DNA of 64,000 nt from an uncultured Clostridia bacterium. GTDB lineage: Bacteria > Bacillota > Clostridia > Christensenellales > UBA1242. Location of the stretch: positions 53,680-117,679 of the forward strand of contig CATLHJ010000002.1 of the NCBI GenBank assembly GCA_949949035.1, read 5' to 3'. Shown piece after piece: positions 14,969-30,755 of the stretch. The notes under the pieces are model-generated. The model made no database searches. It worked only from the letters and a program-made list of their open reading frames with translations, and was not told the origin of the DNA. Both the position numbers and the translations under genes were made by a program. Positions within the stretch are counted from its first letter, which is position 1. Each line of letters opens with the position of its first letter.

Positions 14969-16443
14969 AAAACTTTTTGTAAACGTGGCATAATATCGGA
15001 CAACTGTTCTCGTCCTAACGGGTGGGGTAAACGGTCGTTTCCTAGTTCAATCGTAAATGACGGAATGTCGTTCTTTAGTGCTAAGTAATCGGTTAACCCA
15101 CCATAAGAATCAACCGACATGGTGGCACGGTATTGGGTTAGTTCGGCAAGCTTTTGGGCGGTTGGTTGATCGGTAATCCGGCTGTAATAAATAACTTCGC
15201 CTTTAGTGTGTAAAGCCACGCTGATAGTGGGGTGAAAGTCATGGACCAATCGCAAAATGGCTTTGGTTTCTGGTTCGCTGTGTGGGTGATGCCCAATATA
15301 GTTGGCGGGAGCGGGGGTAGTAAGGTTGCTGTGACCTTGCCCCCAGCCCGCATCATAATTAACGTTCAAATCGACGGCACGGGCGTTGGCTTTCCAGAGA
15401 CGAAAATCAGTACTGCCGCGATTGACGCGTTTTAACCATCGACGACGACAACGGGGCGTCGCGGTTAAACCTTGGGTAGCTAAGGCTATGCCGTCAGGAT
15501 TACAGTTAGGAACCAAAACAACGCCAACGTCACTGGGTAAATCGAAGCACAAAGGTAATAACCCGCGTGTAGCGTCAACCGTTAACCATTCACGGGCGTG
15601 CATTCCGCCGGTAATTAAGACGCGTTTGCTGGCACGTAAGTTACCGAATTGATAAGCAATAATTGGTCGGTGTAATACGCTGTGTCCGATAATTTTAATA
15701 CAGTCCAAATGTTGTAAGTCACGATAATCAGTTATCCCGTTGGGTAACGTAGCGGTACCATGAAAATCCGAACCGACTCTTAAACATTGGTCTCCAAAAT
15801 GTTTAATAAAGTATAAATAGTGTTTTATGTAGTTATAAATACTACAAGATGTAGTGTGTTGCGTTAAAAATTCGGGCACCACGCACAGGCCGACCAGTCC
15901 TCCTGATTTAACGATGGTCTGTATTTGATGGTTAGTTAAATTTCGTGGGTGGCGGTGCAAAGCGTTTAAGGCGGTATGTGTGCAAACCAAGGGGCGACTG
16001 GTAATTTGCGCTAATTGGTAGAAACTGTGACGATTCAAGTGTGCGGTATCGATTTGGATACCCGCAGCTTCCAAGGCAGCAATGACTTGACGCCCCCACG
16101 GGGTGATGTTGTGGTGACTTTTGGCACCACCGGCTAAGGTGTTGGCTTGATTCCACGTTAAACCGACGCTGTGCGGGCGCAATTTAATGAATGCGTCTAA
16201 ATTAGCTGGGGTTAAAAACCACGCGTCTTCGATGTGTAAACGACATAGGGGGTAAGCGGGATCACCGGCTAATTTATCTAACACTCGCTTTTTGGTTTTG
16301 ATAGTAGCCATGGGGTTGGGTAAGCGAGTAGTCCATACCGATAGCCAAATTTCGTGTACGCCGTCGCGTTTGGCTTTTTGCAGGTAGGTGCGTAACTGGG
16401 CGGTAGGTAGTGCCAGTAACGCGTCATTATGTAAATCAACCAT
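14947..16443 (-). CDS. Fusion of an M19 membrane dipeptidase-like domain and an M14 gamma-D-Glu-mDAP peptidase-like domain
   Basis: DLHND, LTWN, IDTAH, CTHT, GSDF (M19); HAREW, NPDG, VDLN, SEPET, LHT, TIELG (M14). Confidence 0.85.
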   Translation of the reverse strand: MVDLHNDALLALPTAQLRTYLQKAKRDGVHEIWLSVWTTRLPNPMATIKTKKRVLDKLAGDPAYPLCRLHIEDAWFLTPANLDAFIKLRPHSVGLTWNQANTLAGGAKSHHNITPWGRQVIAALEAAGIQIDTAHLNRHSFYQLAQITSRPLVCTHTALNALHRHPRNLTNHQIQTIVKSGGLVGLCVVPEFLTQHTTSCSIYNYIKHYLYFIKHFGDQCLRVGSDFHGTATLPNGITDYRDLQHLDCIKIIGHSVLHRPIIAYQFGNLRASKRVLITGGMHAREWLTVDATRGLLPLCFDLPSDVGVVLVPNCNPDGIALATQGLTATPRCRRRWLKRVNRGSTDFRLWKANARAVDLNVNYDAGWGQGHSNLTTPAPANYIGHHPHSEPETKAILRLVHDFHPTISVALHTKGEVIYYSRITDQPTAQKLAELTQYRATMSVDSYGGLTDYLALKNDIPSFTIELGNDRLPHPLGREQLSDIMPRLQKVFYLLTGA

Positions 16444-16467
16444 TGGCTATATCTATGTGGGAAGTGG

Positions 16468-16497
16468 TTGTCAAATACTACCAGATTATGGTATAAT
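16468..16497 (+). promoter_or_regulatory. sigmaA promoter of tmRNA
   Basis: TTGTCA-18-TATAAT with extended TG. Confidence 0.7.
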
Positions 16498-16521
16498 TAT
16501 AACAGGACGACCACAAGCCGT

Positions 16522-16885
16522 GGGGGCGATTGGCTTCGACGGTTGGCGGGCGGTTCGTTAAGCATACCGGCGGGGAAACCATACGTTAATTGGTTTCGAA
16601 AAGACAAATGCAAGTCCTAAAAATGCAAACTTGGCTTTGGCTGCGTAAGTAAGTCAAAGAACCGGGCGAACGACGCGTTTAACCCTTTTAACGGTCGCTC
16701 GACAACAAAGGGTGAACGGGGCAGTATAACCTTGGTTAACGGTAATATTGTTCGGCACCAAAGTTAACCCTAACCGAATTACTTTGTCGTTAATTTATCG
16801 GTTGGGAAATAGATAACGACTATGTATGTAGAAGTACGAACCAGAAACCAATCGGACTCGGGTTCAATTCCCGACGTCTCCACCA
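16522..16885 (+). ncRNA. ssrA: tmRNA (SsrA); tag reading frame ASPKNANLALAA* at 16610-16648
   Basis: 5' GGGGGCGATTGGCTTCGAC; 3' T-arm GGTTCAATTCC and CGTCTCCACCA acceptor with G3-U pair; tag ends LALAA-stop. Confidence 0.97.
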
Positions 16886-18410
16886 CAGCAGGGGTATACG
16901 CACCCCTAGCACATAAAGCAAAATTAGTATTGCCTATTGGCGTTGATGTAGTTGTGCCGCCGTCAGGGCAATCGGGAAAAATTAGGTTCATTAGTAGGGC
17001 TTCTTTTTGTCCGCTTTTTAAGTGGAATAAGATTTTCATTTTGTCATCGTACACAATGACGCGGTAGATTAGCGTGTTAATTAACGCCTTACGATTTTGG
17101 AAATTGTCATAATCTAATTCGCGGAAATGGTGTAACCATTTTTGTATATCGGCGTAAGTGTAATTGATTTGCAAGGCTTTTTCGGTCTCAACGGTGTTGG
17201 CTAGGGCTTTATTCTCGTTTTCTAGTTTTTCAATTTGCGCCAAGATTGTGTCAGTGGCTTTGCCGTGCATTAACGCTTGCATTAAGTTGTCGATTGATTT
17301 TTGGTTGGCTGCTACCAAGTTTTCTAGCCGTTTAATCTCGCTGTCGTTTTGTTCAGCTTTAATTAGCGTGTAGGTTTCGGCGGCAATCATATCAATAAAT
17401 TCATCGGTTAAAGTGCGGACAATTTCTTGCACAACGGCGTCTTCAATGATTTTTTGACGGATGGTGCGTTTGTCGCATTGGTGTGATGGAATAATATTGA
17501 CACAGCGGTAGTAATGGTGCAGTTTCCCCGTTTTGCTGGTGGCACTGATGCCCGTCATTTTGGCGCCGCATTTGCCGCAAATCAATTTGTCGGAAAGTAG
17601 GTAAGGAACTTTCGCTTTGCCACGAGCGGGTGCGGCTGCGTATTTAGCAAGCACTTGTTGCACTTGGGTAAACAAATTATCGTCAATAATCCGCGGAATC
17701 CCGCCGTCGGTTTCTTGACCTTGAAAGATGTATTTGCCAAGGTAACGGCGGTTGTTGAAAATGCTGTGAAAACTGTTTTTGTTCCATTTGGCTCCGTGCG
17801 ATGTTTTGATGCCGTGTTCGTTCAGGTAGTCGCCAATTTGTACATAGTTGTAACCACTGGCTAACATTTGGAACATTTTTTTGACGATTGGGGCAGTATT
17901 GTCATCGATGACGATATTTTTCTCGGTGTCAACCTTGTAGCCAAGCGGTACAGCACCACCAAAGAATTTGCATTTAGACGCCGAGATAGCAATGCCGCGT
18001 TTAATTTTCTGGGCGAGTTCTGCCGAGTAATATTCCGCCATACTTTCCAAGACGCCTTCGATTAAAATACCGCTGGCATCGTCAGTAATATTTTCCTTGG
18101 CGGATAACACGCGAACACCGTTTTTCTTTAATTTAGATTTATAAATGGCACTATCGTAACGGTTGCGGGCAAAGCGGTCCAACTGGTAAACAATCACAAA
18201 TTGAAAGGCTTTTTTCTTGCTGTCTTCAATCATTTGCAAAAAGTCTGGTCGTTTATCAGTTGTTCCCGTTAAAGCACGGTCAATGTATTCGTGAATAATG
18301 TGCAAGTCACTGCGTTTGGCGAACGCATAGCATTCTGCTAGTTGCCCTTCGATTGATTGTTCATTTTGTGAGTGTGAACTAAATCGTGCATAAATTACGG
18401 CATTTTTCAT
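16779..18410 (-). CDS. Large serine recombinase (integrase); last ~36 codons overlap tmRNA antisense
   Basis: YARFSS catalytic Ser, DRFARN, recombinase domain, CGKCG...YYRC zinc ribbon, coiled coil. Confidence 0.95.
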   Translation of the reverse strand: MKNAVIYARFSSHSQNEQSIEGQLAECYAFAKRSDLHIIHEYIDRALTGTTDKRPDFLQMIEDSKKKAFQFVIVYQLDRFARNRYDSAIYKSKLKKNGVRVLSAKENITDDASGILIEGVLESMAEYYSAELAQKIKRGIAISASKCKFFGGAVPLGYKVDTEKNIVIDDNTAPIVKKMFQMLASGYNYVQIGDYLNEHGIKTSHGAKWNKNSFHSIFNNRRYLGKYIFQGQETDGGIPRIIDDNLFTQVQQVLAKYAAAPARGKAKVPYLLSDKLICGKCGAKMTGISATSKTGKLHHYYRCVNIIPSHQCDKRTIRQKIIEDAVVQEIVRTLTDEFIDMIAAETYTLIKAEQNDSEIKRLENLVAANQKSIDNLMQALMHGKATDTILAQIEKLENENKALANTVETEKALQINYTYADIQKWLHHFRELDYDNFQNRKALINTLIYRVIVYDDKMKILFHLKSGQKEALLMNLIFPDCPDGGTTTSTPIGNTNFALCARGAYTPAVVETSGIEPESDWFLVRTSTYIVVIYFPTDKLTTK

Positions 18411-18460
18411 TTTTTACTCCTTTTTTGCCTTAAAAGGCAAGGCTCCGCCATTGCCGCTTG

Positions 18461-18579
18461 GCTACCCGTCCCACTGGCGACAGCAAGGACAGTCAAGGGT
18501 CTGCCACGCAGTGGACGGCGTTTTATGCCTAACGGGAGATAAATCGCCGCCCTTGACGGTGCTTGCCGACAGTGGTAGC
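18461..18579. promoter_or_regulatory. Long branched stem-loop in the integrase leader
   Basis: Nested pairings CCACTG/CAGTGG, GCAAG/CTTGC, GTCAAGGG/CCCTTGAC, GGCGTTTTAT/ATAAATCGCC. Confidence 0.55.
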
Positions 18580-18871
18580 AGAAAAACATTGTTTCAATGT
18601 AGATATTACTTGCTGGTTTGACTTGTGGATTTTTGTCGTAATCTTAGATAAATTGACGATTATAAAAAACTTTTAGTAAAAACCTTGCCATTTGCCTTTC
18701 CCCGTGTCTATAGGTAGGGGCTATAAAAATAAAACCTTAACACCCCCTGCGTGAAGTGCTTATAGGTAGGGGGCACGGCGGGCAATGGCGGCGCAGCCGC
18801 CTTGCCCGCGGGCGTGTATAGTATTACCACGCCACCCCGTAACACTGTAACAACATTAAAAGGAGTAGAAG

Positions 18872-19060
18872 ATGTGTAAAACGAATAATTTGCCAAATCG
18901 CTTTGACGGTATTTCAGTTATCTATTTTGATGACAAAAGTCGCAACCGCTACGTGAAATTACCGGCGGATCAAGAACTGGCAAAACAGTTAGCCAGTTTG
19001 CTTTATCACAATGTAAAAATCACAATTAGCCAAGACAAGCAAAAGGAGACTGTAAAATGA
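18872..19060 (+). CDS. Small hypothetical protein, coupled to the tyrosine recombinase
   Basis: AAGGAG SD; ATGA overlap with the next gene. Confidence 0.65.
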   Translation: MCKTNNLPNRFDGISVIYFDDKSRNRYVKLPADQELAKQLASLLYHNVKITISQDKQKETVK

Positions 19061-19974
19061 AATATCAAAATTGGTTAAACGAATGGTTGGAAAATTATAT
19101 TAAACCGACCCATAAGCAACGGACTTACGATCGCTATTGGCAAGTTGTCAATACCCATATTTTGGCAAGTTTGGGTAATTATGAGTTAAATGCTATCACA
19201 CCCTTGATCCTGCAAAAGTATGTTGCCCAGTTGCTGCAAAACGGTAATCAGCAAACGGGGCAGTCATTGTCTGCAAATACGGTTAATGGCATTATTTCAA
19301 TTTTGCAATCGTCCTTAAAAACGGCGTATACCTTGGGGCTGTGCGACGAATACGTCGGCAATAAAATTGCCCGTCCCAAAATCACCGAAAAACAAGTTTC
19401 GTGTTTTAACCTGACAGAACAAAAACAAATTGAACACTATGTCCTCACTAACAAAAAGTTCAAACTTTATGGTGTGATAATTTGTTTGTATACAGGTTTA
19501 CGTATCGGCGAATTATTAGGATTAGAGTGGCGTGATCTTGATTTTAATAAAGGCATTTTGACAGTATCCAAGACAGTTTACGATCACCAAGGTCAGCGCT
19601 GTATTGATACTCCGAAAACAATCACTTCTTGCCGCATGATTCCGTTGCCCAAACAATTGCTGCCGGTCTTGAGAAACTTAAAGCAAAATACCAAATCAAA
19701 CTGTATAGTGGTGGATAAAGATAATCGTCCTATCTCGGTCCGCAGTTACCAACGCAGTTTTGAATTATTACAAAAGAAATTGAAAATTGCCCATCGGGGG
19801 TTTCACGCTTTGCGGCATACTTTCGCTACGCGGGCATTGGAGTGCGGTATGGATGTAAAATCACTTTCGGAAATCTTGGGGCATAAAAATACCAGCATTA
19901 CACTTAATCGTTACGTGCATTCGCTACTGGAACATAAGCAATCAATGATGAATAAACTTGGTAAATTGTTATAG
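19057..19974 (+). CDS. Tyrosine recombinase, probable DNA invertase
   Basis: TGLRIGE, PKT, FHALRHTFAT, ILGH, RYVH catalytic set; 305 aa with no arm-binding domain; inverted repeat starts 5 nt after the stop. Confidence 0.93.
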   Translation: MKYQNWLNEWLENYIKPTHKQRTYDRYWQVVNTHILASLGNYELNAITPLILQKYVAQLLQNGNQQTGQSLSANTVNGIISILQSSLKTAYTLGLCDEYVGNKIARPKITEKQVSCFNLTEQKQIEHYVLTNKKFKLYGVIICLYTGLRIGELLGLEWRDLDFNKGILTVSKTVYDHQGQRCIDTPKTITSCRMIPLPKQLLPVLRNLKQNTKSNCIVVDKDNRPISVRSYQRSFELLQKKLKIAHRGFHALRHTFATRALECGMDVKSLSEILGHKNTSITLNRYVHSLLEHKQSMMNKLGKLL

Positions 19975-19979
19975 AAAAG

Positions 19980-20002
19980 TGTTCATCAAATATTTTAATC
20001 GG
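19980..20002 (+). repeat. Left inverted repeat of the invertible segment (TGTTCATCAAATATTTTAATCGG)
   Basis: Exact reverse complement of 20114-20136. Confidence 0.92.
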
Positions 20003-20021
20003 CGTACATATTTACAATAAA

Positions 20022-20050
20022 ACTATACCATAGTCACCTGAAAATCGCAA
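20022..20050 (-). promoter_or_regulatory. sigmaA promoter inside the invertible segment, currently facing away from the methyltransferase
   Basis: Minus strand TTGCGA-17-TATAGT with extended -10 TG. Confidence 0.8.
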
Positions 20051-20113
20051 ACAAGTTATCAAAATTGTTCATTTACATGATATTTACCGCCACAAATTGC
20101 TCCATTTTGTTCT

Positions 20114-20136
20114 CCGATTAAAATATTTGATGAACA
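20114..20136 (-). repeat. Right inverted repeat of the invertible segment (CCGATTAAAATATTTGATGAACA)
   Basis: Exact reverse complement of 19980-20002. Confidence 0.92.
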
Positions 20137-20174
20137 AATGTTTTGTCGTTATGTACATAAAATGGGAGTTACAA

Positions 20175-21113
20175 ATGGCAAATCAATCACTTAATAAGGC
20201 AAAGATTGAAAAGAATGATGAATTTTATACTTTAATGAGTGATATTGAAAACGAATTATCAAGATATGATTTCTCCCAATTCAAAGATAAAATTGTATAT
20301 TGTAATTGTGATGACCCTACATGGAGCAACTTTTTTAAATTTTTTACTAAGTGGGGTAAGCGTATGGGAATTAGTGAAGTCCATTTTACCAATTATGCCA
20401 ATACAAAAAGAAAATGGAATAAACAATTAACACTTTTTGAAGCGCTTGATTTAAAGGAAAGTGCAGAAGATGATAGATGTGGTACGGCACACCATTGGAC
20501 TTTTTATCCAGAAACTAATCAAATTACTAAAAGAAATCTTAAGGGTAATGGAGACTTTCGTAGCCTGGAGTGTATTGAAATTTTAAGGAAATGTGATATA
20601 GTCGTCACTAATCCACCATTTAGTATTTTTAATGATTTTCTCAATCTACTTATTAAATATGATAAATCGTATTTGATAATTAGTGATGATAATAAATTAT
20701 CGAATATTGATATTTTTCCATTAATAAAAGCCAACAAACTTTGGTTAGGCTATACTCGAGTAAAAAAGTTTTTACAACCAGATGGCACATACAAAACTTT
20801 TGGAAACAAATGTTGGTATACAAATTTAGAAGTAACATATCGTCGGCAACCAGTTATTTTACATGATCAAGACCTAACGCGATTCAAAAAATATGATAAT
20901 TACAACGCTATTGAAATTCCCGAAGTTAAATATATCCCAGATAGTTATTATGAACCCATTGGATTACCGATAACTTTTTTACATAAATTTTGTCCTGAAC
21001 AGTTTGAAATAATTGGTATGTCAGGTGTAGATATAAAAATCAAGGGTGGACGCTTTTATGTGGCGGGTAGACGCTTGCAGCCAAGATTAGTTGTTCAAAG
21101 GAGAAAAATATAA
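20175..21113 (+). CDS. Adenine-specific DNA methyltransferase, EcoRI-methylase family
   Basis: KNDEFYT, YCNCDDP, GDFRS, VTNPPFS; start moved to ATG 20175 behind a GGGAG SD. Confidence 0.9.
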   Translation: MANQSLNKAKIEKNDEFYTLMSDIENELSRYDFSQFKDKIVYCNCDDPTWSNFFKFFTKWGKRMGISEVHFTNYANTKRKWNKQLTLFEALDLKESAEDDRCGTAHHWTFYPETNQITKRNLKGNGDFRSLECIEILRKCDIVVTNPPFSIFNDFLNLLIKYDKSYLIISDDNKLSNIDIFPLIKANKLWLGYTRVKKFLQPDGTYKTFGNKCWYTNLEVTYRRQPVILHDQDLTRFKKYDNYNAIEIPEVKYIPDSYYEPIGLPITFLHKFCPEQFEIIGMSGVDIKIKGGRFYVAGRRLQPRLVVQRRKI

Positions 21114-21114
21114 A

Positions 21115-22191
21115 ATGCAATATCAAATCGCAATTAGAACAATCAAAGATTTGCTGAATGATCAAGTATATTTAACCAATATCAATATGCAAAGAAAGTA
21201 TATTTACAACCACGAACAGGCATCTCATTTACTTGATAGTATTCAAAAGGGAATACCAATTCCAGCAATTTATTTGTGGGATAACCGTGATGGTACTTTT
21301 GATGTATTAGACGGGAAGCAGAGAATAACTGTCATGCGTTTATATGTTAATCCAAAATATTTACCTGGCGGAGTGCATAATTTTTTCATTGACCACATGG
21401 ACATTAGAAATTTTGAAAGCTATCAAATTCCCGTCATTATTTGTTCTGGAACCGAAGAAGAGAAAATTGAAACGTTTAAGCGAATTAATACTACTGCGGT
21501 TGCCTTAAAAGAATTTGAAATTTACAACGCGTTATATCAGGGAACTTTTGTTGAAGAATTTGGTAACTGGGGCATTGGCTTATCACCAAACGAAGAATTG
21601 TTTTTCGGTAAAAGCATAAGGGGTGAAAACTGTATTAAAGCAGTAAAATTATTTACTGAGAAACCAGAAAATTATTTTAAGCATAATCGCAATCAATCCT
21701 TTGTGAATGGACTTAAAAGAGAGCTTGATGTTTTGGTTGAAACCACGCTTAACCTGTTCAAGGATTACGGAAATGATTATTACATTTTGGCTAAAATTGT
21801 ACTAGAAAATATTAATAATATCTCGTTAATTAATAGTTGGAAATTAAACAAAAGAACAATTACCGATTTATTAATTGAGTATGCTAATAACGGCGAATTG
21901 GCTAACGCACCCAGCCGTGAAAGTTTTTATAAGGAATTATTAGGTTGTTATACAATTACAGGTTTAGACAGTAAGCGGTTTTTCACAAAAGATGATAAAA
22001 AAGCCTTATATGAAAAATTAAGTAAAGGATTGAGTAGTGGAAAAAGAGTTTGTCCAACCTGTGGCAAAGAATTTAGTTTTGACCAATTCGAAGTCGACCA
22101 TGTTTTGCCTTGGAGTAAAGGCGGCAAGACGTGTTTAGATAACGCCCAATTATTGTGTAAGGGCTGTAATGTTAAGAAAAGCAATCAATAA
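21115..22191 (+). CDS. DUF262 (GmrSD/ParB-like) + C-terminal HNH endonuclease
   Basis: QR..Y, LLDSI..GIPIP, LDGKQR, FKRIN; CPTC...DHVLPWSKGG...NAQLLC..CN. Confidence 0.9.
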   Translation: MQYQIAIRTIKDLLNDQVYLTNINMQRKYIYNHEQASHLLDSIQKGIPIPAIYLWDNRDGTFDVLDGKQRITVMRLYVNPKYLPGGVHNFFIDHMDIRNFESYQIPVIICSGTEEEKIETFKRINTTAVALKEFEIYNALYQGTFVEEFGNWGIGLSPNEELFFGKSIRGENCIKAVKLFTEKPENYFKHNRNQSFVNGLKRELDVLVETTLNLFKDYGNDYYILAKIVLENINNISLINSWKLNKRTITDLLIEYANNGELANAPSRESFYKELLGCYTITGLDSKRFFTKDDKKALYEKLSKGLSSGKRVCPTCGKEFSFDQFEVDHVLPWSKGGKTCLDNAQLLCKGCNVKKSNQ

Positions 22192-22365
22192 ATAGTTTTA
22201 ATAGTGAGCAATTGATTGTTTAATTAGTACTTAATGTGATTGAAAATTTATTATTCTTTATGCTTATCGGGCATATACAGCAAATATTTCAGAATTCTAA
22301 AACTAATTTAAAATCAAATATAAATATGTTATAATCGGATTATAAAATCCAGGAGAAAAACGAAA

Positions 22366-23109
22366 ATGATTCCGAAAGAGTTACTTCAGAATGAATATAA
22401 GTCTTGGTTGCAGCAGAATGTTAAAACAGAGTCAAGTAGGAATAAGTATTTTTCTGCGATACAAATTATAAGTAAAGAAATGTTGGCACTTAAGGTAATA
22501 GATAAAGATCTGTTTGAGGTAGTAAATTTTGAAGATTTTATAATCTTATGTGATAAAATATTAAAAAATAATTTCTTTATCAAGAAAGATCGGGTTGGAC
22601 ACAATATGTATAGTTCAGCATTGCGTAATTATTATAGAAATTTTTTGGCTGAAAAGTTTTATTGTGACAATGATATTGTATTAGATATGAATACATCTAC
22701 ATGGACTGATGAGACTGACAAAGGAGAATATAGAGCAGAAATATCGTTATCAACATTGTCTAAATTGCAAGAACTTAAAAGTGGGAATATAACCGAAGGT
22801 GAAAAAAGAAAAATTCAATCTTATGTTTACGAAAGAAATAGTAGAGCAAGGCTTCTGTGTATAGAGCATTATGGTTCAGTATGTCAAGTTTGTGGTTGCG
22901 ATATGGCGAAAATCTATGGGGAAGAATTTACTGGTAAGATACATGTCCATCATAAAGTGCCACTAAATGAAATTGCACAATCATATGAAGTTGATCCAAT
23001 AAAAGATTTAGTACCTGTGTGCCCTAATTGTCATATGATACTACATTGCAAGAAAGATGGTTATTATACGGTGGACGAGATTAGAGAGAAAATTAATAAG
23101 TTGAGGTAA
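22366..23109 (+). CDS. HNH endonuclease, McrA-like C-terminal domain
   Basis: EG...YERN..AR..CIEHYG..CQVC, HVHH, VCPNCH..LH; AGGAG SD and upstream TATAAT. Confidence 0.88.
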   Translation: MIPKELLQNEYKSWLQQNVKTESSRNKYFSAIQIISKEMLALKVIDKDLFEVVNFEDFIILCDKILKNNFFIKKDRVGHNMYSSALRNYYRNFLAEKFYCDNDIVLDMNTSTWTDETDKGEYRAEISLSTLSKLQELKSGNITEGEKRKIQSYVYERNSRARLLCIEHYGSVCQVCGCDMAKIYGEEFTGKIHVHHKVPLNEIAQSYEVDPIKDLVPVCPNCHMILHCKKDGYYTVDEIREKINKLR

Positions 23110-23316
23110 ATTATTACGTATATCTATAACTACAATCTATACTATGAAAGTGTTGTAGACTAAAGAAAAGTAATAAATCTTTGATTCAAAAGTTTTTAAA
23201 AAATTATAGATTATTGAGATATAGGAAATTAAGTTAATAAAAAGTAATACACAGTTTGATAAAAAACGTGTATTATTATTATGGGATTTATTAAATAAGT
23301 GTTATAAGAGGTAAGA

Positions 23317-25479
23317 ATGAAAAAAGTTCAAGTTTCTAATATCAAAATTCACCCCAGATCAATTGAGGCGATGGGGGCAAGTTTGGTTACTAATGATAAT
23401 GTAGCGATTTTAGAATTAGTTAAAAATGCATATGATGCATTCGCATATAAAGTCAATATAACATTTAGTCACGACAATTCAAAGATAACTATTATTGACG
23501 ATGGTATTGGAATGACCCTAGATGATATAACTGAAAACTGGGCGACCATATCTACAACATATAAAGTTGATAACAAATATATTGAACGTAATGGTATTAA
23601 GCGTATAACATCTGGAAACAAAGGATTAGGGCGATTATCCGCTTCAAGATTGGGTGGAAAATTAACACTTATAACAAAAGCAAAAAATTCACCAATTTTA
23701 AAAACGGTATTTGTTTGGGACAATTTTTATGAACAAGAAAGTCCAGAAGATTGCAAATTTGATATATACGAATTAGACGTAGATGAGGATATAAAAGAAA
23801 CTGGCACAAAATTAATAATTGAAGACCTTAAGGCAAGTTGGGAATCAAGTAAAATTGACGATTTGAAAATAGAATTAGAAAGACTAATTAATCCATTTGA
23901 TGGCAATAAGGATTTTGTTATTACGTTAAATGATAAAATTGAGCCATTAACTATTTTTGATCATTATGAAAATACTGGAATTGTCGAAGTAAACAAATTA
24001 ATTTCGGATCCAGTCTATAAAGTAACTGGAAGTGTTGATGATGAGTTAAACGTAGACTATACTTTTGAATATTTTGAGAACTATAATTCCAAAGATAAAA
24101 GAAATAAAAAGGTATTGAAAGGTTTTATATCTTGGGATGAAATTAAAGAAAAGTGCAATGATAGTAATTCTGAAACTATTCCTTATCATGATGATATAAC
24201 TTGCGGAAAGTTTGGTTTTGAGTTTAGAATTTGGGAATTACAATCAGATTATCTTAATGAAATTGCAAATAGATATGGATTAAAATCAACCAGTATAGTA
24301 AGAAAAATTATAAATAATCAGAAAGGGATATCAGTTTATAGAGATGGAATTTTGGTTTTGCCAAAATCTGAAAATTCTAGAGATTGGTTAGGGCTAGACA
24401 AAAAGCGTATAAGTCAAATAGGTCGAAGATTATCTACAGCACAAATAATTGGTCAAATTAATATTTCGATCAATGAAAATCCTAAGTTACTAGATACTTC
24501 TAGTAGGGAAAGTTTTGTTAAAAACGAAGAGTTTGATAACTTCTACGCAGTTTGTGTAGCTGGAATCATTAATAAAATTCAGCAGTTGCGTTTACAAGTT
24601 AAGCCAGATGCAACTAATCGTCCTAATGTGAAAGACTTTTTTAAAGATGCATCGCCAGATAAACTAAATTCAGCTGTTGAAGATGCTGTTAAACAAAACA
24701 AATCAATTAGTGAAGTGCAGCAAGTTGTGCAAGATTATAGTAGGGAACTTAAAAGGAGTTTGGCTCTGCTAAAGGAGAGAGTTGAATATTATGCACAGTT
24801 AGCTTCAGCTGGTACCTTCAGTAAGGTAATAATTCATGAAATAAAGAATAACACCAACCCAGTTAAACGCTTTAATAGGAGCGTATATGAAATATATTCA
24901 CCATTTAACGAAAGACTTAACAATTATTATAAATTGTCTTGTGATGGATGTGATAGATTAATAAAATTATCTGATACTTTTGCACCTTTAAGTAGGACAA
25001 CTTTCAAAACAGAAAAGCATACTTGTGATCTATATTCAGAATCGAATAATGTTTTGCTCTTAATGAATGATTATTTAACAAATAACAACATTGTAGTTAC
25101 AAATAATATTCCAAAAGGGATTACCGTAAAGTTACATAGCGGTGAAATACAGACTATTTTAATTAATCTTTTAGACAATGCTATATATTGGGTTTGCAGA
25201 AACAAAAATCTGAATGATAAATTAATTCAATTTAGTGTGGAAGAATGTGATAATGGCTTTATTGAAGTAAGAGTTTCAGATAATGGTATTGGTGTTGATC
25301 CGAATCTTGGGGAGAAAATATTTGAGCCTGGAATAACATCTAAGCCTTCGGGTTTTGGTATGGGACTTGTTGTAGTTAATGAAATTGTATCAACACATTC
25401 GGGATATTTAAAAAACATACAACCAGGTGAAATAGCAGATGGTGCAACATTTGCTTTTACGGTTCCAGTGGAGGAGTAA
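23317..25479 (+). CDS. GHKL (MORC-like) ATPase fused to a C-terminal histidine kinase module
   Basis: N-terminal ELVKNAYDA, DDGIGM, GNKGLGRLS; C-terminal HEIKN, NLLDNAIYW, DNGIG, IFEPG, GFGMGL. Confidence 0.88.
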   Translation: MKKVQVSNIKIHPRSIEAMGASLVTNDNVAILELVKNAYDAFAYKVNITFSHDNSKITIIDDGIGMTLDDITENWATISTTYKVDNKYIERNGIKRITSGNKGLGRLSASRLGGKLTLITKAKNSPILKTVFVWDNFYEQESPEDCKFDIYELDVDEDIKETGTKLIIEDLKASWESSKIDDLKIELERLINPFDGNKDFVITLNDKIEPLTIFDHYENTGIVEVNKLISDPVYKVTGSVDDELNVDYTFEYFENYNSKDKRNKKVLKGFISWDEIKEKCNDSNSETIPYHDDITCGKFGFEFRIWELQSDYLNEIANRYGLKSTSIVRKIINNQKGISVYRDGILVLPKSENSRDWLGLDKKRISQIGRRLSTAQIIGQINISINENPKLLDTSSRESFVKNEEFDNFYAVCVAGIINKIQQLRLQVKPDATNRPNVKDFFKDASPDKLNSAVEDAVKQNKSISEVQQVVQDYSRELKRSLALLKERVEYYAQLASAGTFSKVIIHEIKNNTNPVKRFNRSVYEIYSPFNERLNNYYKLSCDGCDRLIKLSDTFAPLSRTTFKTEKHTCDLYSESNNVLLLMNDYLTNNNIVVTNNIPKGITVKLHSGEIQTILINLLDNAIYWVCRNKNLNDKLIQFSVEECDNGFIEVRVSDNGIGVDPNLGEKIFEPGITSKPSGFGMGLVVVNEIVSTHSGYLKNIQPGEIADGATFAFTVPVEE

Positions 25480-26480
25480 TGAAAGTATTAATAGCGGAAG
25501 ATAAATTAGAAACAATACAATCTATAACAGATCATTGCAGTGATAATAGTATAGAGTATCAAATAATCCAAGATTTTAATGATGTTTTATCTACATTAGC
25601 AACAACACATTTTGATGCATTAATTTTAGATTTAAAGAAAGATCCTGGTGAGGAATATCCTGGATATGATATATTTAATCAGATATGGGCAGAAAGATTT
25701 ATCCCTATCATTATTTATTCTTCATATTATGATAATCTACCTAATAAGGTTGACCATCAGTTTGTTTCGTACTTTGATAAGTCCGAAGAGGAAAAGGTAA
25801 TAGTTCGCTTGACTGAGTATTTAAGTATGAGCGAAAAAATTACTAAAATTCGTAGTAAAATGAATGATTTATTTATACAAGCTTTAAGGTTCGTTAATAA
25901 TAACGACTCGAATGATGTTCAATTTCAAAGAGTATTGATTGGGATGAAAAATTATCTTGACGAGGACAATCCCAACCTTTCGTTACCAGCAGATGTGCAA
26001 TACTTGGTTTTACCTCAATATCAATCATTAGCGACTTGTGATATTGTTGAGACTATTCCACAACACAATACAGAATCTGAATTTTATATGATTATGTCAC
26101 CGTGGTGTGAAATTGCGCAAGCAGGAAGTCCGATTGAATTAGAATGTAAGAAAATTATTGATAATTCTTCTGTGAATAGTGAGACAAGAAATACTATTAA
26201 AAACCATAGCAATGAAGGTGGGTATAGAAATTATATTTTGCTTCCCGATTGTAAAAAGTTGAAAAAAAAAATCGTTGATGTAACGAAGACTGTTATAATA
26301 AAAAATGATCAAATATCACTCAATCCAAACGAAACAGATTTAAATAGATATAAATATAGAAAAATAATTTCAATAGCAAGTCCATTTCGTGAAAGGATGA
26401 TTGCCTTATGTTATAACAATAGATCGCGTATCGGTGTGCCAAACTTAAATAAGGATAGTTGGTGGATCGATGAAAATTAA
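25479..26480 (+). CDS. Response-regulator receiver domain + unknown C-terminal domain
   Basis: KVLIAED, LILDL (acceptor Asp), IPIIIYS; coupled to the kinase gene. Confidence 0.82.
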   Translation: MKVLIAEDKLETIQSITDHCSDNSIEYQIIQDFNDVLSTLATTHFDALILDLKKDPGEEYPGYDIFNQIWAERFIPIIIYSSYYDNLPNKVDHQFVSYFDKSEEEKVIVRLTEYLSMSEKITKIRSKMNDLFIQALRFVNNNDSNDVQFQRVLIGMKNYLDEDNPNLSLPADVQYLVLPQYQSLATCDIVETIPQHNTESEFYMIMSPWCEIAQAGSPIELECKKIIDNSSVNSETRNTIKNHSNEGGYRNYILLPDCKKLKKKIVDVTKTVIIKNDQISLNPNETDLNRYKYRKIISIASPFRERMIALCYNNRSRIGVPNLNKDSWWIDEN

Positions 26481-27618
26481 AGCGATAGACCTGTTTTCAG
26501 GCTGCGGGGGAGTTTCTTGTGGATTAATTAATGCTGGGTTTAATGTTACAGGAGCCGTAGAAATAAATAAAGATGCAGTAAGAACCTACAAAAATTATAA
26601 AAGATTACAACATGTTAATGTTATTAATGATGATATTCGTAATGTTGATGGTTTTGAATTACTAAAACAAAGCCAGATTGAACCTAGCGATATTTACTTA
26701 TTGGCAGGTTGCCCACCTTGTCAAAATTTTTCATCGCAGAATAGGTCTGGAAGATTAAAAACAGAAACAGAAAAAGAAGCATTATTAATGGAATATTTAA
26801 GAATTATTAAACAAGTGTATCCACCGTTTGTTTTACTTGAAAATGTTTCTGGTATTACAAGTCCATGTAATAAAAACATATTAAATAAATTTATAAATGA
26901 ATTAAAAAATGAAAAAGATACTTGTGCGGAACACCAATATTTTGTGCTGTGTAGTATATTAAACGCCGCCAATTTTGGTGTGCCACAAAGACGTCGTAGG
27001 TTTGTGCTACACGCTATTAGAAAGGATATATATAATCTACTCAAAAGCCAAAATATTGGTGTTTCATTACCAAGAGAAACTCATAATAAGAATGGTGATC
27101 ATGGTTTGAACAGATGGGTATCAGTATGGGATGTTATATCTGATTTACCACCGATAGAAGCTGGACAACATTTTAATTCAGGAACAATTAAAAACCACAC
27201 TTGTGCCAATTTATCTGAACTTAACATCCGAAGAATGGAATATATACGAAATAATGGAGGTAGTAGAAGTAGTCTACCTGATGATCTACAATTAAATTGT
27301 CATAAGAATTATTCAGGGCATAAAGATGTTTATGGAATTATAGATCCTAATCTTCCCGCTCCTACTATGACGGGAGGGTGTTTATGTTATTCGAAGGGAC
27401 GTTTTGGACATCCATATCAAAATAGAGCTCTATCAATAAGAGAAGCGGCTAGGATACAAACTTTCCCTGATGATTTTATTTTTGACGATTTGACAACAAA
27501 GTCAGGACTGCAAATAGGCAATGCTGTCCCGGTTAAATTAGTTGAAGTTTCTGCAAAAAATATACTACTTGAAATAGTCAATTATCAAAAATTATTGAGA
27601 AAATCTTCTAATAAATAG
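26470..27618 (+). CDS. dcm: DNA cytosine-C5 methyltransferase
   Basis: DLFSGCGG, GCPPCQ, ENV, PQRRRR, EAARIQTFP, GNAVP. Confidence 0.95.
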   Translation: MKIKAIDLFSGCGGVSCGLINAGFNVTGAVEINKDAVRTYKNYKRLQHVNVINDDIRNVDGFELLKQSQIEPSDIYLLAGCPPCQNFSSQNRSGRLKTETEKEALLMEYLRIIKQVYPPFVLLENVSGITSPCNKNILNKFINELKNEKDTCAEHQYFVLCSILNAANFGVPQRRRRFVLHAIRKDIYNLLKSQNIGVSLPRETHNKNGDHGLNRWVSVWDVISDLPPIEAGQHFNSGTIKNHTCANLSELNIRRMEYIRNNGGSRSSLPDDLQLNCHKNYSGHKDVYGIIDPNLPAPTMTGGCLCYSKGRFGHPYQNRALSIREAARIQTFPDDFIFDDLTTKSGLQIGNAVPVKLVEVSAKNILLEIVNYQKLLRKSSNK

Positions 27619-27639
27619 TTTTGGTGCAGGTGGATAAAA

Positions 27640-27929
27640 TCAAGCGATTTTGAAAAGTCTGCAGGTGCTAATTTTTAAAAAATTATTCTGGAATATAAGG
27701 TCGCAATCGTTCTAGTTTTAAAAAGAAATTTGAGACCAAATTATTTTTGTAGTTGATTCTTTGAAAGATAAAGAGTTAGATAACTTAAATAGAAAAAATA
27801 ATAGATTTTTTGAAGAATAAACTATATGATAATCAAGTTATTGTAGCATCAATTTATTCCGCAGAACAATTATTTACCGATTTTGATAAAACTATTATTA
27901 TTCATGATAAAGCCATAGAAACTAGATAA
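27640..27929 (+). pseudogene. Degraded C-terminal fragment of an ABC/SMC-like ATPase
   Basis: Frameshifted pieces read SSDFEKSAGANF*...YKVAIVLVL...VDSLKDKELD...KIIDFLKNKLYDNQVIVASIY (Walker B/D-loop/switch-like order). Confidence 0.4.
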
Positions 27930-28210
27930 GTCTATGTTCAATTTGACAATAAAAGTTATCCCGATTAACTTTTAATATAGTGGTGTGCGTATTTAAGGTA
28001 TGCCGTTCCACCACAGACGAATCATTTGAAATCCACCGCGTAGCGGAACTAAAATGGTATTTTATCGCATGTGTTTTATGCGTAGAACTGTTTAGAAATA
28101 GTAATGAAATTTTACATGTAATTTTTAGTGGCAGTAAAATGGCAGATTTTATAAATTTGCTGTTACCTTATTGGTGGTTACAAATGGCGTGAACCAAAAA
28201 GGAGGTAAAA

Positions 28211-28501
28211 ATGGGCGGTGCCTGTATGCCCAGTGGTGGGGTGATTATTTTTGATAGCAGTAAGCATATTGATTCAGTATATCCAGAATATCCTAATGCT
28301 CGCTTTGATATTTTTAATCAATTTGGAAAATTAATTAAACAATATTGGACTGACTATTTAGGAAACTTAATTTATCGGCGAGATCATACGAACCATAATA
28401 ATCCAAAACAGCATCCTGAGGTGCCACATGATCATGACGTAGGTGCCAATGGTCCGAATGCCCCATGGATATCGGTAGACAGAACGGGAAGATTTTGTTA
28501 A
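28211..28501 (+). CDS. Small His-rich putative nuclease toxin, polymorphic-toxin-like
   Basis: AGGAGG SD; RRDHTNHNNPKQHPEVPHDH motif. Confidence 0.55.
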   Translation: MGGACMPSGGVIIFDSSKHIDSVYPEYPNARFDIFNQFGKLIKQYWTDYLGNLIYRRDHTNHNNPKQHPEVPHDHDVGANGPNAPWISVDRTGRFC

Positions 28502-28514
28502 AAAAGGAGTAATC

Positions 28515-28985
28515 ATGAAAAAAACAGGAAAGATTGAATTGGAAAAATGCCCAATTTGCGGTCGGATGATTTTTACGCTTTATGGTAATCAAGTGGATCA
28601 AAATGGTGAACGGAGTGATGGTTGTTTTTGCCAATGCGGTTGGCATAAAACTTGCGGTGGCGAACTTAAACCCGACAAAATTGATTTTCCAAATCATATT
28701 TCATTGAACGAAGCCAAACGGCGTTTCCAAGCTAAGCAACCATTGACTCCAACGTATGATGATTTTATCGCCATGCTGAGATATTGGACAGAAATTCAAT
28801 TCTTCTATTTAGGTATAAAATATGGTGTTTGTCTCGACAGAGAAAGTGTTTACATTTATGTTTGGGGTGGCGATGTGGTTTGCGAATACCCCACGATTGA
28901 AGAATTCGCCGCCAAGGCTAATATCAATGGTATGTTGTTAAAAGACCTGTGGCCACAAATCAAAGACGTGGATTGGGCAGAATAA
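28515..28985 (+). CDS. CPCC-type Cys-rich domain + immunity-like domain
   Basis: CPICG...CQCGW...PNHISLNEAK; C-terminal EIQFFY.G..Y...I.G..LKDLW; AAGGAG SD. Confidence 0.6.
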   Translation: MKKTGKIELEKCPICGRMIFTLYGNQVDQNGERSDGCFCQCGWHKTCGGELKPDKIDFPNHISLNEAKRRFQAKQPLTPTYDDFIAMLRYWTEIQFFYLGIKYGVCLDRESVYIYVWGGDVVCEYPTIEEFAAKANINGMLLKDLWPQIKDVDWAE

Positions 28986-29311
28986 AAGGAGTGTAAAAAT
29001 GAATAATGCCGAAAAGTTCAAGGAACTATTTTTTGCGATGCAAACAGAAGCGGACGAAAGTAGTGAAACATACCAGCAAGAAAAACGACAGAAAAACAAC
29101 GCATCGTTTGTAACTAGTTTGCGTTAGAAGAAAAATACAGAACTTTGCGAGAAATCCAAGCCCTTTGTCCGGCGTGCCGCGGTGTCAAACATTTCCGTAA
29201 TTCGACCAGAATTGGCTATGGCGAACAAGCTAAAAACCACTTTTAGTATTGACTTTTGGGGTGTGTGGTGACTAAAATATAACGATAAATGTTTGCGGAA
29301 GGTATTTTATA

Positions 29312-30346
29312 ATGGCTTATGATCAAGACGGAACTAAGCGGAGTGATGTTAGGCAATATTCTAATAAGCTTTTAATAATCGTGACCAAAAAATGTAATCG
29401 CGATTGTGCTTTTTGTATCGACAGACCCAACCGTAAATATTACCTTGATGATCAAGCATTTATCGATTTAGCAACGGTAAAAAATATCTTAAACTTTGCC
29501 AAAAGCAAAAATATCAAAACCATTGCACTTAATGGCGGCGAACCGACTTTGCACCCACAAATCGTCACCATTGCCAAAATGGTGAAAGAGGCGGGTTTCT
29601 TGACCAAAATTTTTACCAATTACGATTTTCCAGAAGTCGTGAAACAATTAGATGGCATTATCGATATCATTAGAATCTCGTATTATGGCCCTATGCAATT
29701 ACCTAAGCAAAAAGATTTTCAATCAAAAATTACTTTGAAAATAACGTTAACTAAGGCCACATTCCCTAAACTCGATGATTTAATACAATTTGTTAAGGAA
29801 CATCGGCATGATTTTTATGACCTTGAAATTCATACCTTGATGCAAAATAATGATTACAGTATTAACGCCCAAGTTGATTATCTTGATATTTTGAATGAAT
29901 GGTATCCCTTAAAAAGAAATGCCAAAGGCGATTACTATCATGATTTTATGGGGTTTCAAATTAAAAGAGAAGACTTACCTAATCTCGATTATAACCTTGA
30001 ACAAAAATTGTATAAAGCCCATATGGACGGCACTATCTCGCATTATTTTGAAGAAGACCATTACGAAATCGGTGGTTTAGACCAAAATGCTACTCTCACC
30101 AAAGTTTTAAGAGCCCATCGCAATGCGCAATATCGAGAAAATGTCAAACGGGCTTATGAAACTTCCAGTTTGGATTTAGATAATATTGATAAATATTTGC
30201 CGCAAAAACAAAATGATAAATTGGCGACTTGGCGGGGCGGAAATAAAGAATGCATGAAACCGGTCAGCAAATCGGTCAGCGATGCCGAATACGAAGAACT
30301 GAGACAGGAACCATCATCAATGAAAGATATTACCTTGGGGAATTGA
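29312..30346 (+). CDS. Radical SAM protein
   Basis: CNRDCAFC, NGGEPTLHP, FTN. Confidence 0.9.
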   Translation: MAYDQDGTKRSDVRQYSNKLLIIVTKKCNRDCAFCIDRPNRKYYLDDQAFIDLATVKNILNFAKSKNIKTIALNGGEPTLHPQIVTIAKMVKEAGFLTKIFTNYDFPEVVKQLDGIIDIIRISYYGPMQLPKQKDFQSKITLKITLTKATFPKLDDLIQFVKEHRHDFYDLEIHTLMQNNDYSINAQVDYLDILNEWYPLKRNAKGDYYHDFMGFQIKREDLPNLDYNLEQKLYKAHMDGTISHYFEEDHYEIGGLDQNATLTKVLRAHRNAQYRENVKRAYETSSLDLDNIDKYLPQKQNDKLATWRGGNKECMKPVSKSVSDAEYEELRQEPSSMKDITLGN

Positions 30347-30374
30347 CTTGGGGTAGCATTTCTGCTAAATTTAT

Positions 30375-30755
30375 TTGATGGACGAAAAATTGACTCCGGC
30401 GGAAATGCAAGAACTTTTGCGGTCGACCGCAGAATATTGGCGGACGACCATGGGTATAGACTTGCCCGCGGAACAGGCTGTTGGGCAACCCGGTAAATTA
30501 ACCAAGTTGGCAACCAGCATTAAAAACATGGGTGAAAAACTGCGAACGAATGTCACTAACCAATGGTATGCCTTGCGTAATGCTCCGAAAAAACGTAAAT
30601 TCCAAAAATGGTGTCGCGAAAACAATATTTGGGGGGGTGACGTCGTTAGCAGTGGCCCCGTTGACTACGACGCACTGCAACGCGATATTCAAGGTGTCAT
30701 AGCCGAAGTTGACGCCACCAATTTATCGGCTGCTGACGAAAAGGGTAACGACTGA
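30375..30755 (+). CDS. Hypothetical protein
   Basis: 126-aa ORF filling the gap between neighbours. Confidence 0.55.
   Translation: MMDEKLTPAEMQELLRSTAEYWRTTMGIDLPAEQAVGQPGKLTKLATSIKNMGEKLRTNVTNQWYALRNAPKKRKFQKWCRENNIWGGDVVSSGPVDYDALQRDIQGVIAEVDATNLSAADEKGND

Follow-up and report, generated by a model that had tools for sequence, protein, structure and literature searches.

What becomes of a recombinase gene whose reading frame runs out of its own genomic island and into the gene that the island has entered? The question is posed by a 64-kb stretch of DNA (64,000 nt, referred to here as the window; contig CATLHJ010000002.1 of GenBank assembly GCA_949949035.1, positions 53,680 to 117,679) from an uncultured bacterium of the Clostridia, in which a large serine recombinase (LSR) of 543 amino acids (aa) is encoded at the left end of an island next to the gene for transfer-messenger RNA (tmRNA, ssrA). 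We consider it likely that this LSR is the integrase that inserted the island at the tmRNA 3' end, that the integrase gene spans attP, the attachment site of the free element, and that its C-terminus is swapped according to the state of the element. Comparison of the two island ends, in the window and in relatives, shows that the complete integrase gene, as predicted, exists only across attP.

The LSR open reading frame (ORF) is convergent with an intact tmRNA gene (encoded CCA at 16883-16885; Table 1), stays open to the edge of the island and terminates 107 nt within the tmRNA antisense, its final residues being ...RGAYTPAVVE and then TSGIEPES...KLTTK. At the passage from island to tmRNA lies the 10-mer TCCACCACAG, which has exactly two copies in the window, 11,128 bp apart (chance expectation 0.05; two matches were reached in 1 of 100 shuffles). 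At the right-hand copy the minus strand (27919-28014) translates as VVERHTLNTHTTILKVNRDNFYCQIEHRLI and closes with a stop at 27924-27922. Codons for V-V-E stand in identical phase relative to the 10-mer at attL and attR, the left and right island ends, and the attP join would therefore keep the frame at any crossover point inside the core and yield an integrase of 511 + 27 = 538 aa. The same join would bring the octamers GTGCGTAT and ATACGCAC into inverted orientation 31 nt apart. The initial annotation of the window had proposed an unbroken 543-aa integrase with a 32-aa tail read from the tmRNA antisense, an in-frame alternative tail of 27 aa giving 538 aa, and inverted arms around the core; the ORF and its translation, the minus-strand translation together with the V-V-E phase, and the position of the two octamers bear out these three elements in turn. 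Its structural inference, that integrated and excised states encode integrases with different C-termini, is likewise upheld and is backed by the family-wide data given below. From the geometry, integrase transcription would be convergent with and antisense to that of tmRNA; a promoter-like site ahead of the tmRNA gene (16468-16497) matches 11 of 12 consensus positions, in a scan that as a whole found no excess over chance.

A 10-bp repeat is by itself weak evidence, and the boundaries in the window are independently backed by relatives. The nearest relative of the window genome (~1.09 Mb, 90% complete), here called G016, carries an orthologous island at the same tmRNA gene (locus L013) and a second island at a tRNA-Ala gene. 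Homology to the tmRNA island runs at 81% between L013 16-6172 and window 16151-22191, stops at window 22191 and returns at 27944-28013 (79%), and the chromosomal B' flank beyond it is 84.9% identical by blastn (L013 7563-7714 against window 28006-28157). The attR of the second island is 94% identical over 72 nt to the P arm and tail of the window, and this identity begins exactly at TGGTGGA. These two independent comparisons place the right boundary of the window island within the core and, with the chance expectation given above, speak against the doubt attached to the initial annotation, namely that the boundary might lie elsewhere and the repeat be coincidental. Within G016 itself, attL and attR are identical over 7 bp in both islands (TGGTGGA, in integrase sense, in the second; TCCACCA in the tmRNA island). 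Among 12 same-genus tmRNA loci the sequence CA(G/A)CAGGGGTATACGCAC follows the tmRNA CCA only in the window genome and G016, and in the other ten the tmRNA is directly followed by unrelated sequence, mostly terminator-like hairpins; an empty attB was not reconstructed from these ten island-free loci, which at ~70% identity are too diverged to align with the right flank of the window. We also observed in G016 that the attR core and the B' flank are separated by a 129-bp insert (L013 7434-7562), after which comes a second degenerate core (CTACCACAG); the insert holds a GATTGAACCTTT-like motif resembling sequences read by integrase tails in two other loci (L138 and L147), and may be the remnant of a tandem mini-element.

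The domains of the 543-aa protein are those of an LSR, namely a catalytic domain (PF00239, expectation value E 6.8e-28, residues 4-142), a recombinase domain (PF07508, E 1.1e-18, residues 171-255) and a zinc beta-ribbon (PF13408, E 2.2e-14, residues 271-330), all assigned by Pfam, and among PDB sequences it matches the TP901-1 catalytic domain best (E 9e-11). Residues R9 and S11 are invariant across 22 aligned homologues, and S11 is presumably the catalytic nucleophile. The ratio of nonsynonymous to synonymous divergence (dN/dS) of the integrase body against its G016 orthologue is 0.046, a mark of strong purifying selection. Close homologues are numerous in the protein database (5,861 with E <= 1e-20 among 8,000 scored), and the best 120 measure 486-670 aa. 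The body ends in a common way in 24 of 25 homologues retrieved, with ...NLIFPDYPDG, a variable linker and G-C-(A/S)-Y-(T/A)-x-x-x-V, after which come unrelated tails, many of them with G(I/L/F/V)EP, which is what a tRNA T arm encodes when read in antisense.

A scan of a genome collection gave 80 loci; counting the window, the NL[IV]FP motif that marks the end of the enzyme body is present at 56. At 39 of these 56 ARAGORN finds a tRNA or tmRNA gene on the other strand, its 3' end exactly 19 nt beyond the base that opens the Cys codon (6 tmRNA, 8 tRNA-Ala, 10 Glu, 12 Leu, 2 Lys and 1 undetermined). The other 17 comprise one locus at 20 nt, one tRNA-Pro variant, 12 without an ARAGORN gene and three without the motif (two at contig ends, one frameshifted); at L100, one of those without an ARAGORN gene, Rfam recognises a tmRNA (127 bits) at the same 19-nt offset. 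From the fixed register and the outward integrase in 39 of 56 loci, this clade is predicted to enter tRNA and tmRNA genes at their encoded CCA end, the integrase always facing out of the island over the junction. Its hosts are mainly gut Christensenellales-like Clostridia and its targets tmRNA and tRNA-Ala, -Glu, -Leu and -Lys, and in relatives the attL tails follow whichever of these genes was targeted. Moreover, the sites themselves have the anatomy of binding sites for one enzyme. The half-site hexamers (variants ACGCAC, ACGAAC and AAGAAC) are identical in P and P' at 15 of the 20 loci where both ends were found and one base apart in the other five, and the arms, as read from the sequence, are symmetric about the base right after TGGTG. 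Such covariation is expected for the binding sites of a single dimeric enzyme and locates the crossover within the final few nucleotides of the targeted RNA gene; the core measures 10 bp in the window and, judged by eye, about 6-7 bp in relatives.

Several of the loci outside the common register deserve mention in their own right. Four that lack an ARAGORN gene (L098, L100, L102 and L103, of which only L100 was scanned with Rfam) have the tail ...DESGLAPES... in common, which by its sequence marks a putative tmRNA type with an unusual T arm. Four others without an ARAGORN gene at the integrase end (L097, L122, L129 and L147, the ones that gave a hit among those scanned further) have tRNAs 3-7 kb further on, a layout suggestive of tandem arrays, the integrase of one element being read into the end of another. 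In these four and in L128 and L138 the tail past the core reads neither tRNA nor the family tail described below (EMFHPNPN..., TTVKMNSNLCKW...).

The island also encodes a tyrosine recombinase whose gene is conserved in G016, and insertions at tRNA and tmRNA genes are usually the work of tyrosine integrases, which raises the alternative that this enzyme is the true tmRNA integrase and the serine recombinase a passenger. We rejected it, and regard it as very improbable, on the strength of the register, the small size of some islands and the anatomy of the sites. It is the serine and not the tyrosine enzyme that holds the 19-nt register to the CCA end in 39 of 56 loci; the islands at the 20 both-end loci measure 2.7-11 kb, and those of 2.7 kb leave no room for a second recombinase; and no recombinase was found among ten cargo proteins sampled from five family islands, an ORF of the tyrosine recombinase's size being missing from other family islands such as L161. 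Furthermore, the direct repeat of 7-10 bp is accompanied by inverted half-sites, and a short repeat with inverted half-sites is typical of serine, not tyrosine, integrases. As a side observation, the window genome holds ten matches to the serine recombinase, eight of them open at 484-624 aa with no internal stop, an unusually high load for a genome of 1.09 Mb.

If the integrase gene continues across attP, its frame should matter up to the crossover, and this is what the linker suggests. The P' DNA motif, sought without regard to reading frame, is present and nearly invariant in 53 of the 56 loci, and in 52 of these 53 the distance from NLIFP to P' is a multiple of 3 with no stop, although it takes nine different in-frame lengths between 84 and 120 nt (the sole exception, L125, is off by 1 nt). 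A frame kept through nine length changes is not the behaviour of non-coding DNA and points to maintained translation up to the crossover, which thus appears to be selected across the family.

Similar evidence comes from the far side of the island. Segments comprising the P arm and the stranded tail were found in about 20 loci, and the 18 distinct sequences that we aligned describe a family tail of about 41 aa whose stop position is conserved and whose pattern is R(L/I)xA(K/N)(T/K)Nxx I(Y/F)KVN(R/N)xE(L/F)(Y/F)C(A/Q)VELPLSDY(P/K)LYGKQ(L/I)(A/V)A(R/S). Column entropy averages 0.370, 0.364 and 0.770 at the first, second and third codon positions (39 codons), and the variable columns number 17, 16 and 30 of 39, respectively. 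This third-position bias persists in codons 11-39, beyond the P arm, and conservation reaches about 90 nt past the P arm of ~25 nt. Upstream of the attR core the integrase frame consists of locus-specific flank DNA, with stops within a few codons in several loci; since that flank is variable and bears stops, the only consistent upstream partner of the tail codons is the integrase gene across attP. These patterns are those of coding sequence, and the stranded tail is conserved family-wide as protein.

We therefore read the family as follows. The LSR probably inserted the window island at the very tip of the tmRNA gene's 3' end, in its last ~7 nt, the encoded CCA included. In the order in which it is read across attP, the gene consists of the enzyme body, the variable linker, a P'-encoded G-C/G-A/S-Y-T-P-x-x-V, the crossover, and ~41 codons supplied by the P arm and adjacent DNA. 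Integration cuts this gene, stranding its last ~27-42 codons at attR, and the integrated copy then reads tRNA or tmRNA antisense up to a chance stop. To go beyond these observations, only an excised or circular element, or an inner copy of a tandem array, would give rise to a full-length enzyme, and the C-terminal swap could make the activity or stability of the integrase depend on the state of the element. What the tail does is a more tentative matter. It may support integration or protein stability, with the integrated form down-tuned or altered, a suggestion that we advance with some reserve. A bolder and slightly less probable version holds that the ~41-aa module is a built-in sensor of element state that replaces a separate directionality factor; only the circle would make full-length enzyme, and integration, by removing the module, would switch the preferred reaction or the lifetime of the enzyme. 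If true, such a sensor would allow islands with one recombinase gene, some as small as 2.7 kb, to move into the CCA ends of tRNA and tmRNA genes and out again.

A number of observations weigh against this account, and they concern above all the whole enzyme and the window's own copy of the tail. A full-length attP-form integrase was found in none of the 15 protein-database matches to the 42-aa tail of L107. Seven of the 15 are C-terminal integrase fragments fused in frame to the tail, that is, contiguous P'-core-P junctions present in assemblies, and these are N-terminally truncated, 84-121 aa long and in some cases on chromosomal contigs of >100 kb; their short size and long contigs make them read as remnants or tandem-array junctions and not as circles. 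A two-motif (P'...P) scan of metagenomes returned a single match (L184, 1600-1760), a contiguous P'-core-P with the full tail-coding segment that adjoins ABC-transporter genes, has no integrase beside it and could represent a scar resembling attP or an element lacking an integrase. Neither the circle joint (28016 to 16879) nor an island-skipping joint was present in Logan contigs of four runs, a result that we treat as neutral since these contigs hold <=0.17 of the sampled words and rare forms cannot show in them. Viral contigs gave no relatives with a single protein query and 80 loci of 39-52% identity with an alignment query, and no family tail motif was found in six-frame translations of those 80. 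Further, Pfam on the ORFs of the window island, small ones included, revealed no recombination directionality factor, and Pfam on the stranded tail and small ORFs gave no match reaching cut-offs. A 60-aa ORF over the integrase start (18407-18589) was considered for that role and rejected, as it occurs only in the window and G016 among the scanned loci and has an odd composition. An AlphaFold2 model of the C-terminal fragment (alignment of 7 sequences) predicts beta strands in the tail at low confidence (mean predicted local distance difference test, pLDDT, 49.6). To our knowledge, characterised LSRs function without such a tail. Finally, the window's tail follows the family only as far as ...FYCQIE (its proximal ~22 codons), then enters AT-rich DNA and stops four codons later, lacking the conserved distal LPLSDY(P/K)LYGKQ... 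part; the tail of the G016 tmRNA island departs slightly earlier still, and the second G016 island retains its ...CQIKRPLSNLIRNL tail up to the stop. By its sequence the window subclade thus appears to have a shortened and variable distal tail, of which the window copy is a derived version, and given the distal losses the tail may no longer matter in this lineage. The expectation in the initial annotation that an attP-encoded tail would be conserved among homologues is consequently satisfied across the family, by the 18 tails, and fails for the distal half of the window's own.

These points bear on a simpler explanation, in which attP overlaps the 3' end of the integrase gene by accident, the body down to about residue 485 is the complete enzyme, and neither tail, both being read-through, has a function. 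It would account for attL tails that are arbitrary and set by the target RNA, for the distal divergence of the window and G016 tails, and for the homologue P0097 (486 aa), which stops at ...PDYPD directly after the enzyme body and is itself one of the observations that count against a required tail. The Pfam domains, too, end by residue 330 and the alignment-conserved body by about residue 483. Incidental overlap does not, however, predict linker indels that stay in frame in 52 of 53 loci, nor 18 tails with third-position-biased variation and a common stop position, nor conservation for ~90 nt beyond a ~25-nt P arm, and we judge it improbable for the family as a whole.

For the window island in particular there is a stronger competitor to a working, state-dependent integrase. 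The element could be a fixed fossil, immobile since before the species split, whose integrase is kept for another role or only transiently. The same island occupies the same site in G016, and its synonymous divergence (dS) from G016 is like that of its flanks (integrase 1.28, nuclease 1.53, flanking genes 0.49-1.57, all near saturation); from these values the island has probably been at its present site since before the species parted from its nearest relative. The lost distal tail, the failure to find a candidate directionality factor, the small upstream ORF common only to the window and G016, and the absence of circle and empty-site joints from the Logan contigs fit this explanation as well. 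On the other hand, the integrase body retains a dN/dS of 0.046, the core is perfect and both arms are intact, and cargo has been exchanged between the window species and G016. Integrases 86-91% identical to that of the window occupy other targets, including tRNA-Ala in G016, and P0003, of the same subclade, bears a different T-arm-antisense tail; such closely related enzymes at different targets imply that the window subclade moved recently. We hold the fossil to be possible for this one island, though on balance somewhat doubtful, and a gene that spans attP and is divided by integration continues to be our preferred reading of the family.

The genomic island itself (16889-28016) spans 11.1 kb and has restriction-modification and other defence genes as cargo, and its complement of nucleases, methyltransferases and an ATPase leads us to call it a defence island; the DNA between its ends has a G+C content of ~30%. 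The EcoRI-like methyltransferase and the adjoining GmrSD_N-HNH nuclease likely form a restriction-modification pair. To their right, window 22192-27943 corresponds to L013 6173-7363, the right-hand cargo differing between the two species by a swap that left both island ends in place; instead of the HNH, GHKL, receiver and Dcm block, G016 has a Shedu SduA gene (PADLOC, E 1e-104). Between the tyrosine recombinase and the methyltransferase lies a 29-nt inverted repeat (19980-20008 and 20108-20136, 93% complementary, 99 nt between arms), which could be a site of the tyrosine recombinase or a regulatory hairpin. To the right of the B' flank, window 28158-30527 is missing in G016, where L013 7714 continues at window 30528; this segment contains a 96-aa ORF, a 156-aa Cys-rich protein and a radical-SAM protein (29312-30346), and may be a second insertion or an accreted island. 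Elsewhere in the family, islands of 2.7-7 kb (L124, L127, L144, L161 and L107) each carry a single cassette, of the following types: chloramphenicol-acetyltransferase-family protein with hexapeptide transferase, TetR with an unknown protein, ABC transporter, GNAT acetyltransferase, and DUF4365 with HNH. A 136-aa sigma-70 region-4-like protein recurs near attR in many relatives and is missing from the window island.

Table 1. Coordinates of the tmRNA target, the integrase gene and its two ends, and the cargo genes (window positions)
Feature	Position	Strand	Remarks
tmRNA gene (ssrA), integration target	16522-16885	+	ARAGORN; Rfam RF00023, 133 bits, full model 1-374
LSR ORF, 543 aa	16779-18410	-	Resolvase, Recombinase and Zn_ribbon_recom domains
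LSR conserved body, residues 1-485	16956-18410	-	catalytic domain, recombinase domain, zinc ribbon with coiled-coil insert
Variable linker and P'-encoded residues 486-511 (...GAYTPAVVE), translated to crossover	16878-16955	-	
Integrated-state tail, 32 aa and stop (TSGIEPES...KLTTK)	16779-16877	-	antisense to tmRNA acceptor and T arm
attL core TCCACCACAG	16879-16888		last 7 nt of tmRNA and 3 nt
P' arm, including ATACGCAC at 16896-16903	16889-16911		also encodes integrase ...RGAYTPA
P arm, including GTGCGTAT at 27985-27992	27985-28006		
attR core TCCACCACAG	28007-28016		
Stranded integrase 3' piece, 27 codons and stop (RHTLNTHTTILKVNRDNFYCQIEHRLI)	27922-28005	-	predicted to join the gene only in attP configuration
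B' flank, chromosomal DNA originally downstream of tmRNA	28017-28157		conserved with G016
Tyrosine recombinase	19057-19974	+	PF00589, PF14659; G016 orthologue dN/dS 0.071
EcoRI-like adenine methyltransferase	20097-21113	+	common to window and G016
GmrSD_N and HNH nuclease	21091-22191	+	common to window and G016
HNH protein	22366-23109	+	window genome, not G016
Double GHKL ATPase, 720 aa	23317-25479	+	window genome, not G016
Receiver-like protein	25479-26480	+	window genome, not G016
C-5 cytosine methyltransferase (Dcm)	26470-27618	+	window genome, not G016

The choice between integration and excision by serine integrases is central both to phage biology and to tools for genome engineering. As far as we know, the genes of characterised LSRs end before attP and their directionality is set by a separate factor; the alternative offered by this clade would be that recombination itself rewrites the C-terminus of the enzyme. 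The family provides dozens of natural variants and very small elements, with the universal CCA end of tRNA and tmRNA as their target. It also bears on annotation, since gene callers give the integrated-state proteins, whose last 2-90 residues are tRNA antisense, while the true 3' end of the gene lies kilobases away. With TP901-1, SPbeta SprA, phiC31 and Bxb1 the window LSR has in common its domain order and the short sites with inverted half-sites and a small core; it is unlike the characterised LSRs in an ORF that spans attP, in CCA-end targets and in that no directionality factor was identified.

Genes interrupted by their own attachment site are known from other kinds of element. In archaeal integrases of the SSV1 type attP lies inside the gene, which is partitioned on integration into a tRNA gene; these are tyrosine recombinases of archaeal viruses and their genes are divided into two large parts, whereas the window family would lose about 40 terminal codons. 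In the integration-dependent immunity of mycobacteriophages, which Broussard et al. are said to have described in 2013, attP reportedly lies inside a gene such that the free and integrated proteins differ in C-terminus and stability. There, however, it is reportedly the repressor that spans attP, the integrase is a tyrosine enzyme and a degradation tag is swapped, and no attP-spanning repressor was seen in the window. A further parallel is IntP/IntX of phage Mx8, a tyrosine integrase for which a review (PMC6070905) describes attP within the coding sequence, an integration event giving a recombinant gene with a new 3' end, and a swap by which the integrase changes in specificity but is not inactivated. 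Mx8 is a phage of a different phylum and its enzyme a tyrosine recombinase, whereas that of the window family is a serine recombinase. The share of the C-terminus replaced in Mx8 is also said to be much larger than in the window family.

The closest counterpart is found in the ssrA islands of Dehalococcoides, in which the LSR DsiB lies next to tmRNA at the island edge in a layout as here (McMurdie et al. 2011, PMC3146451), and for which it was suggested that dsiB may attain full function just when the element is circular or when the gene stands downstream of a neighbouring island. The two are likened here by their described layout, and the dsiB attL tails are called divergent (PMC3146451). Differences are nonetheless apparent. 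The DsiB islands insert in the tmRNA T-loop (333/334) with a 20-bp repeat (PMC3146451), whereas the window island sits at the CCA end with a core of 7-10 bp; and they carry a small serine recombinase, DsiA, and a conserved integration module (PMC3146451), neither of which was seen in the window island, where among ten ORFs scanned in and beside it only the 543-aa protein has a Resolvase domain. Our literature search on this clade or on attP-spanning serine integrases found nothing beyond DsiB, and the available part of an LSR survey (PMC10083194) mentions tRNA 0 times and has no passage on an LSR ORF spanning an attachment site. The attP-spanning layout of a serine integrase and the hypothesis of a state-dependent function have thus already been published for dsiB; as far as we have searched, what the present family adds, previously undescribed, is the coding conservation of the stranded tail across its members and their targeting of the CCA end.

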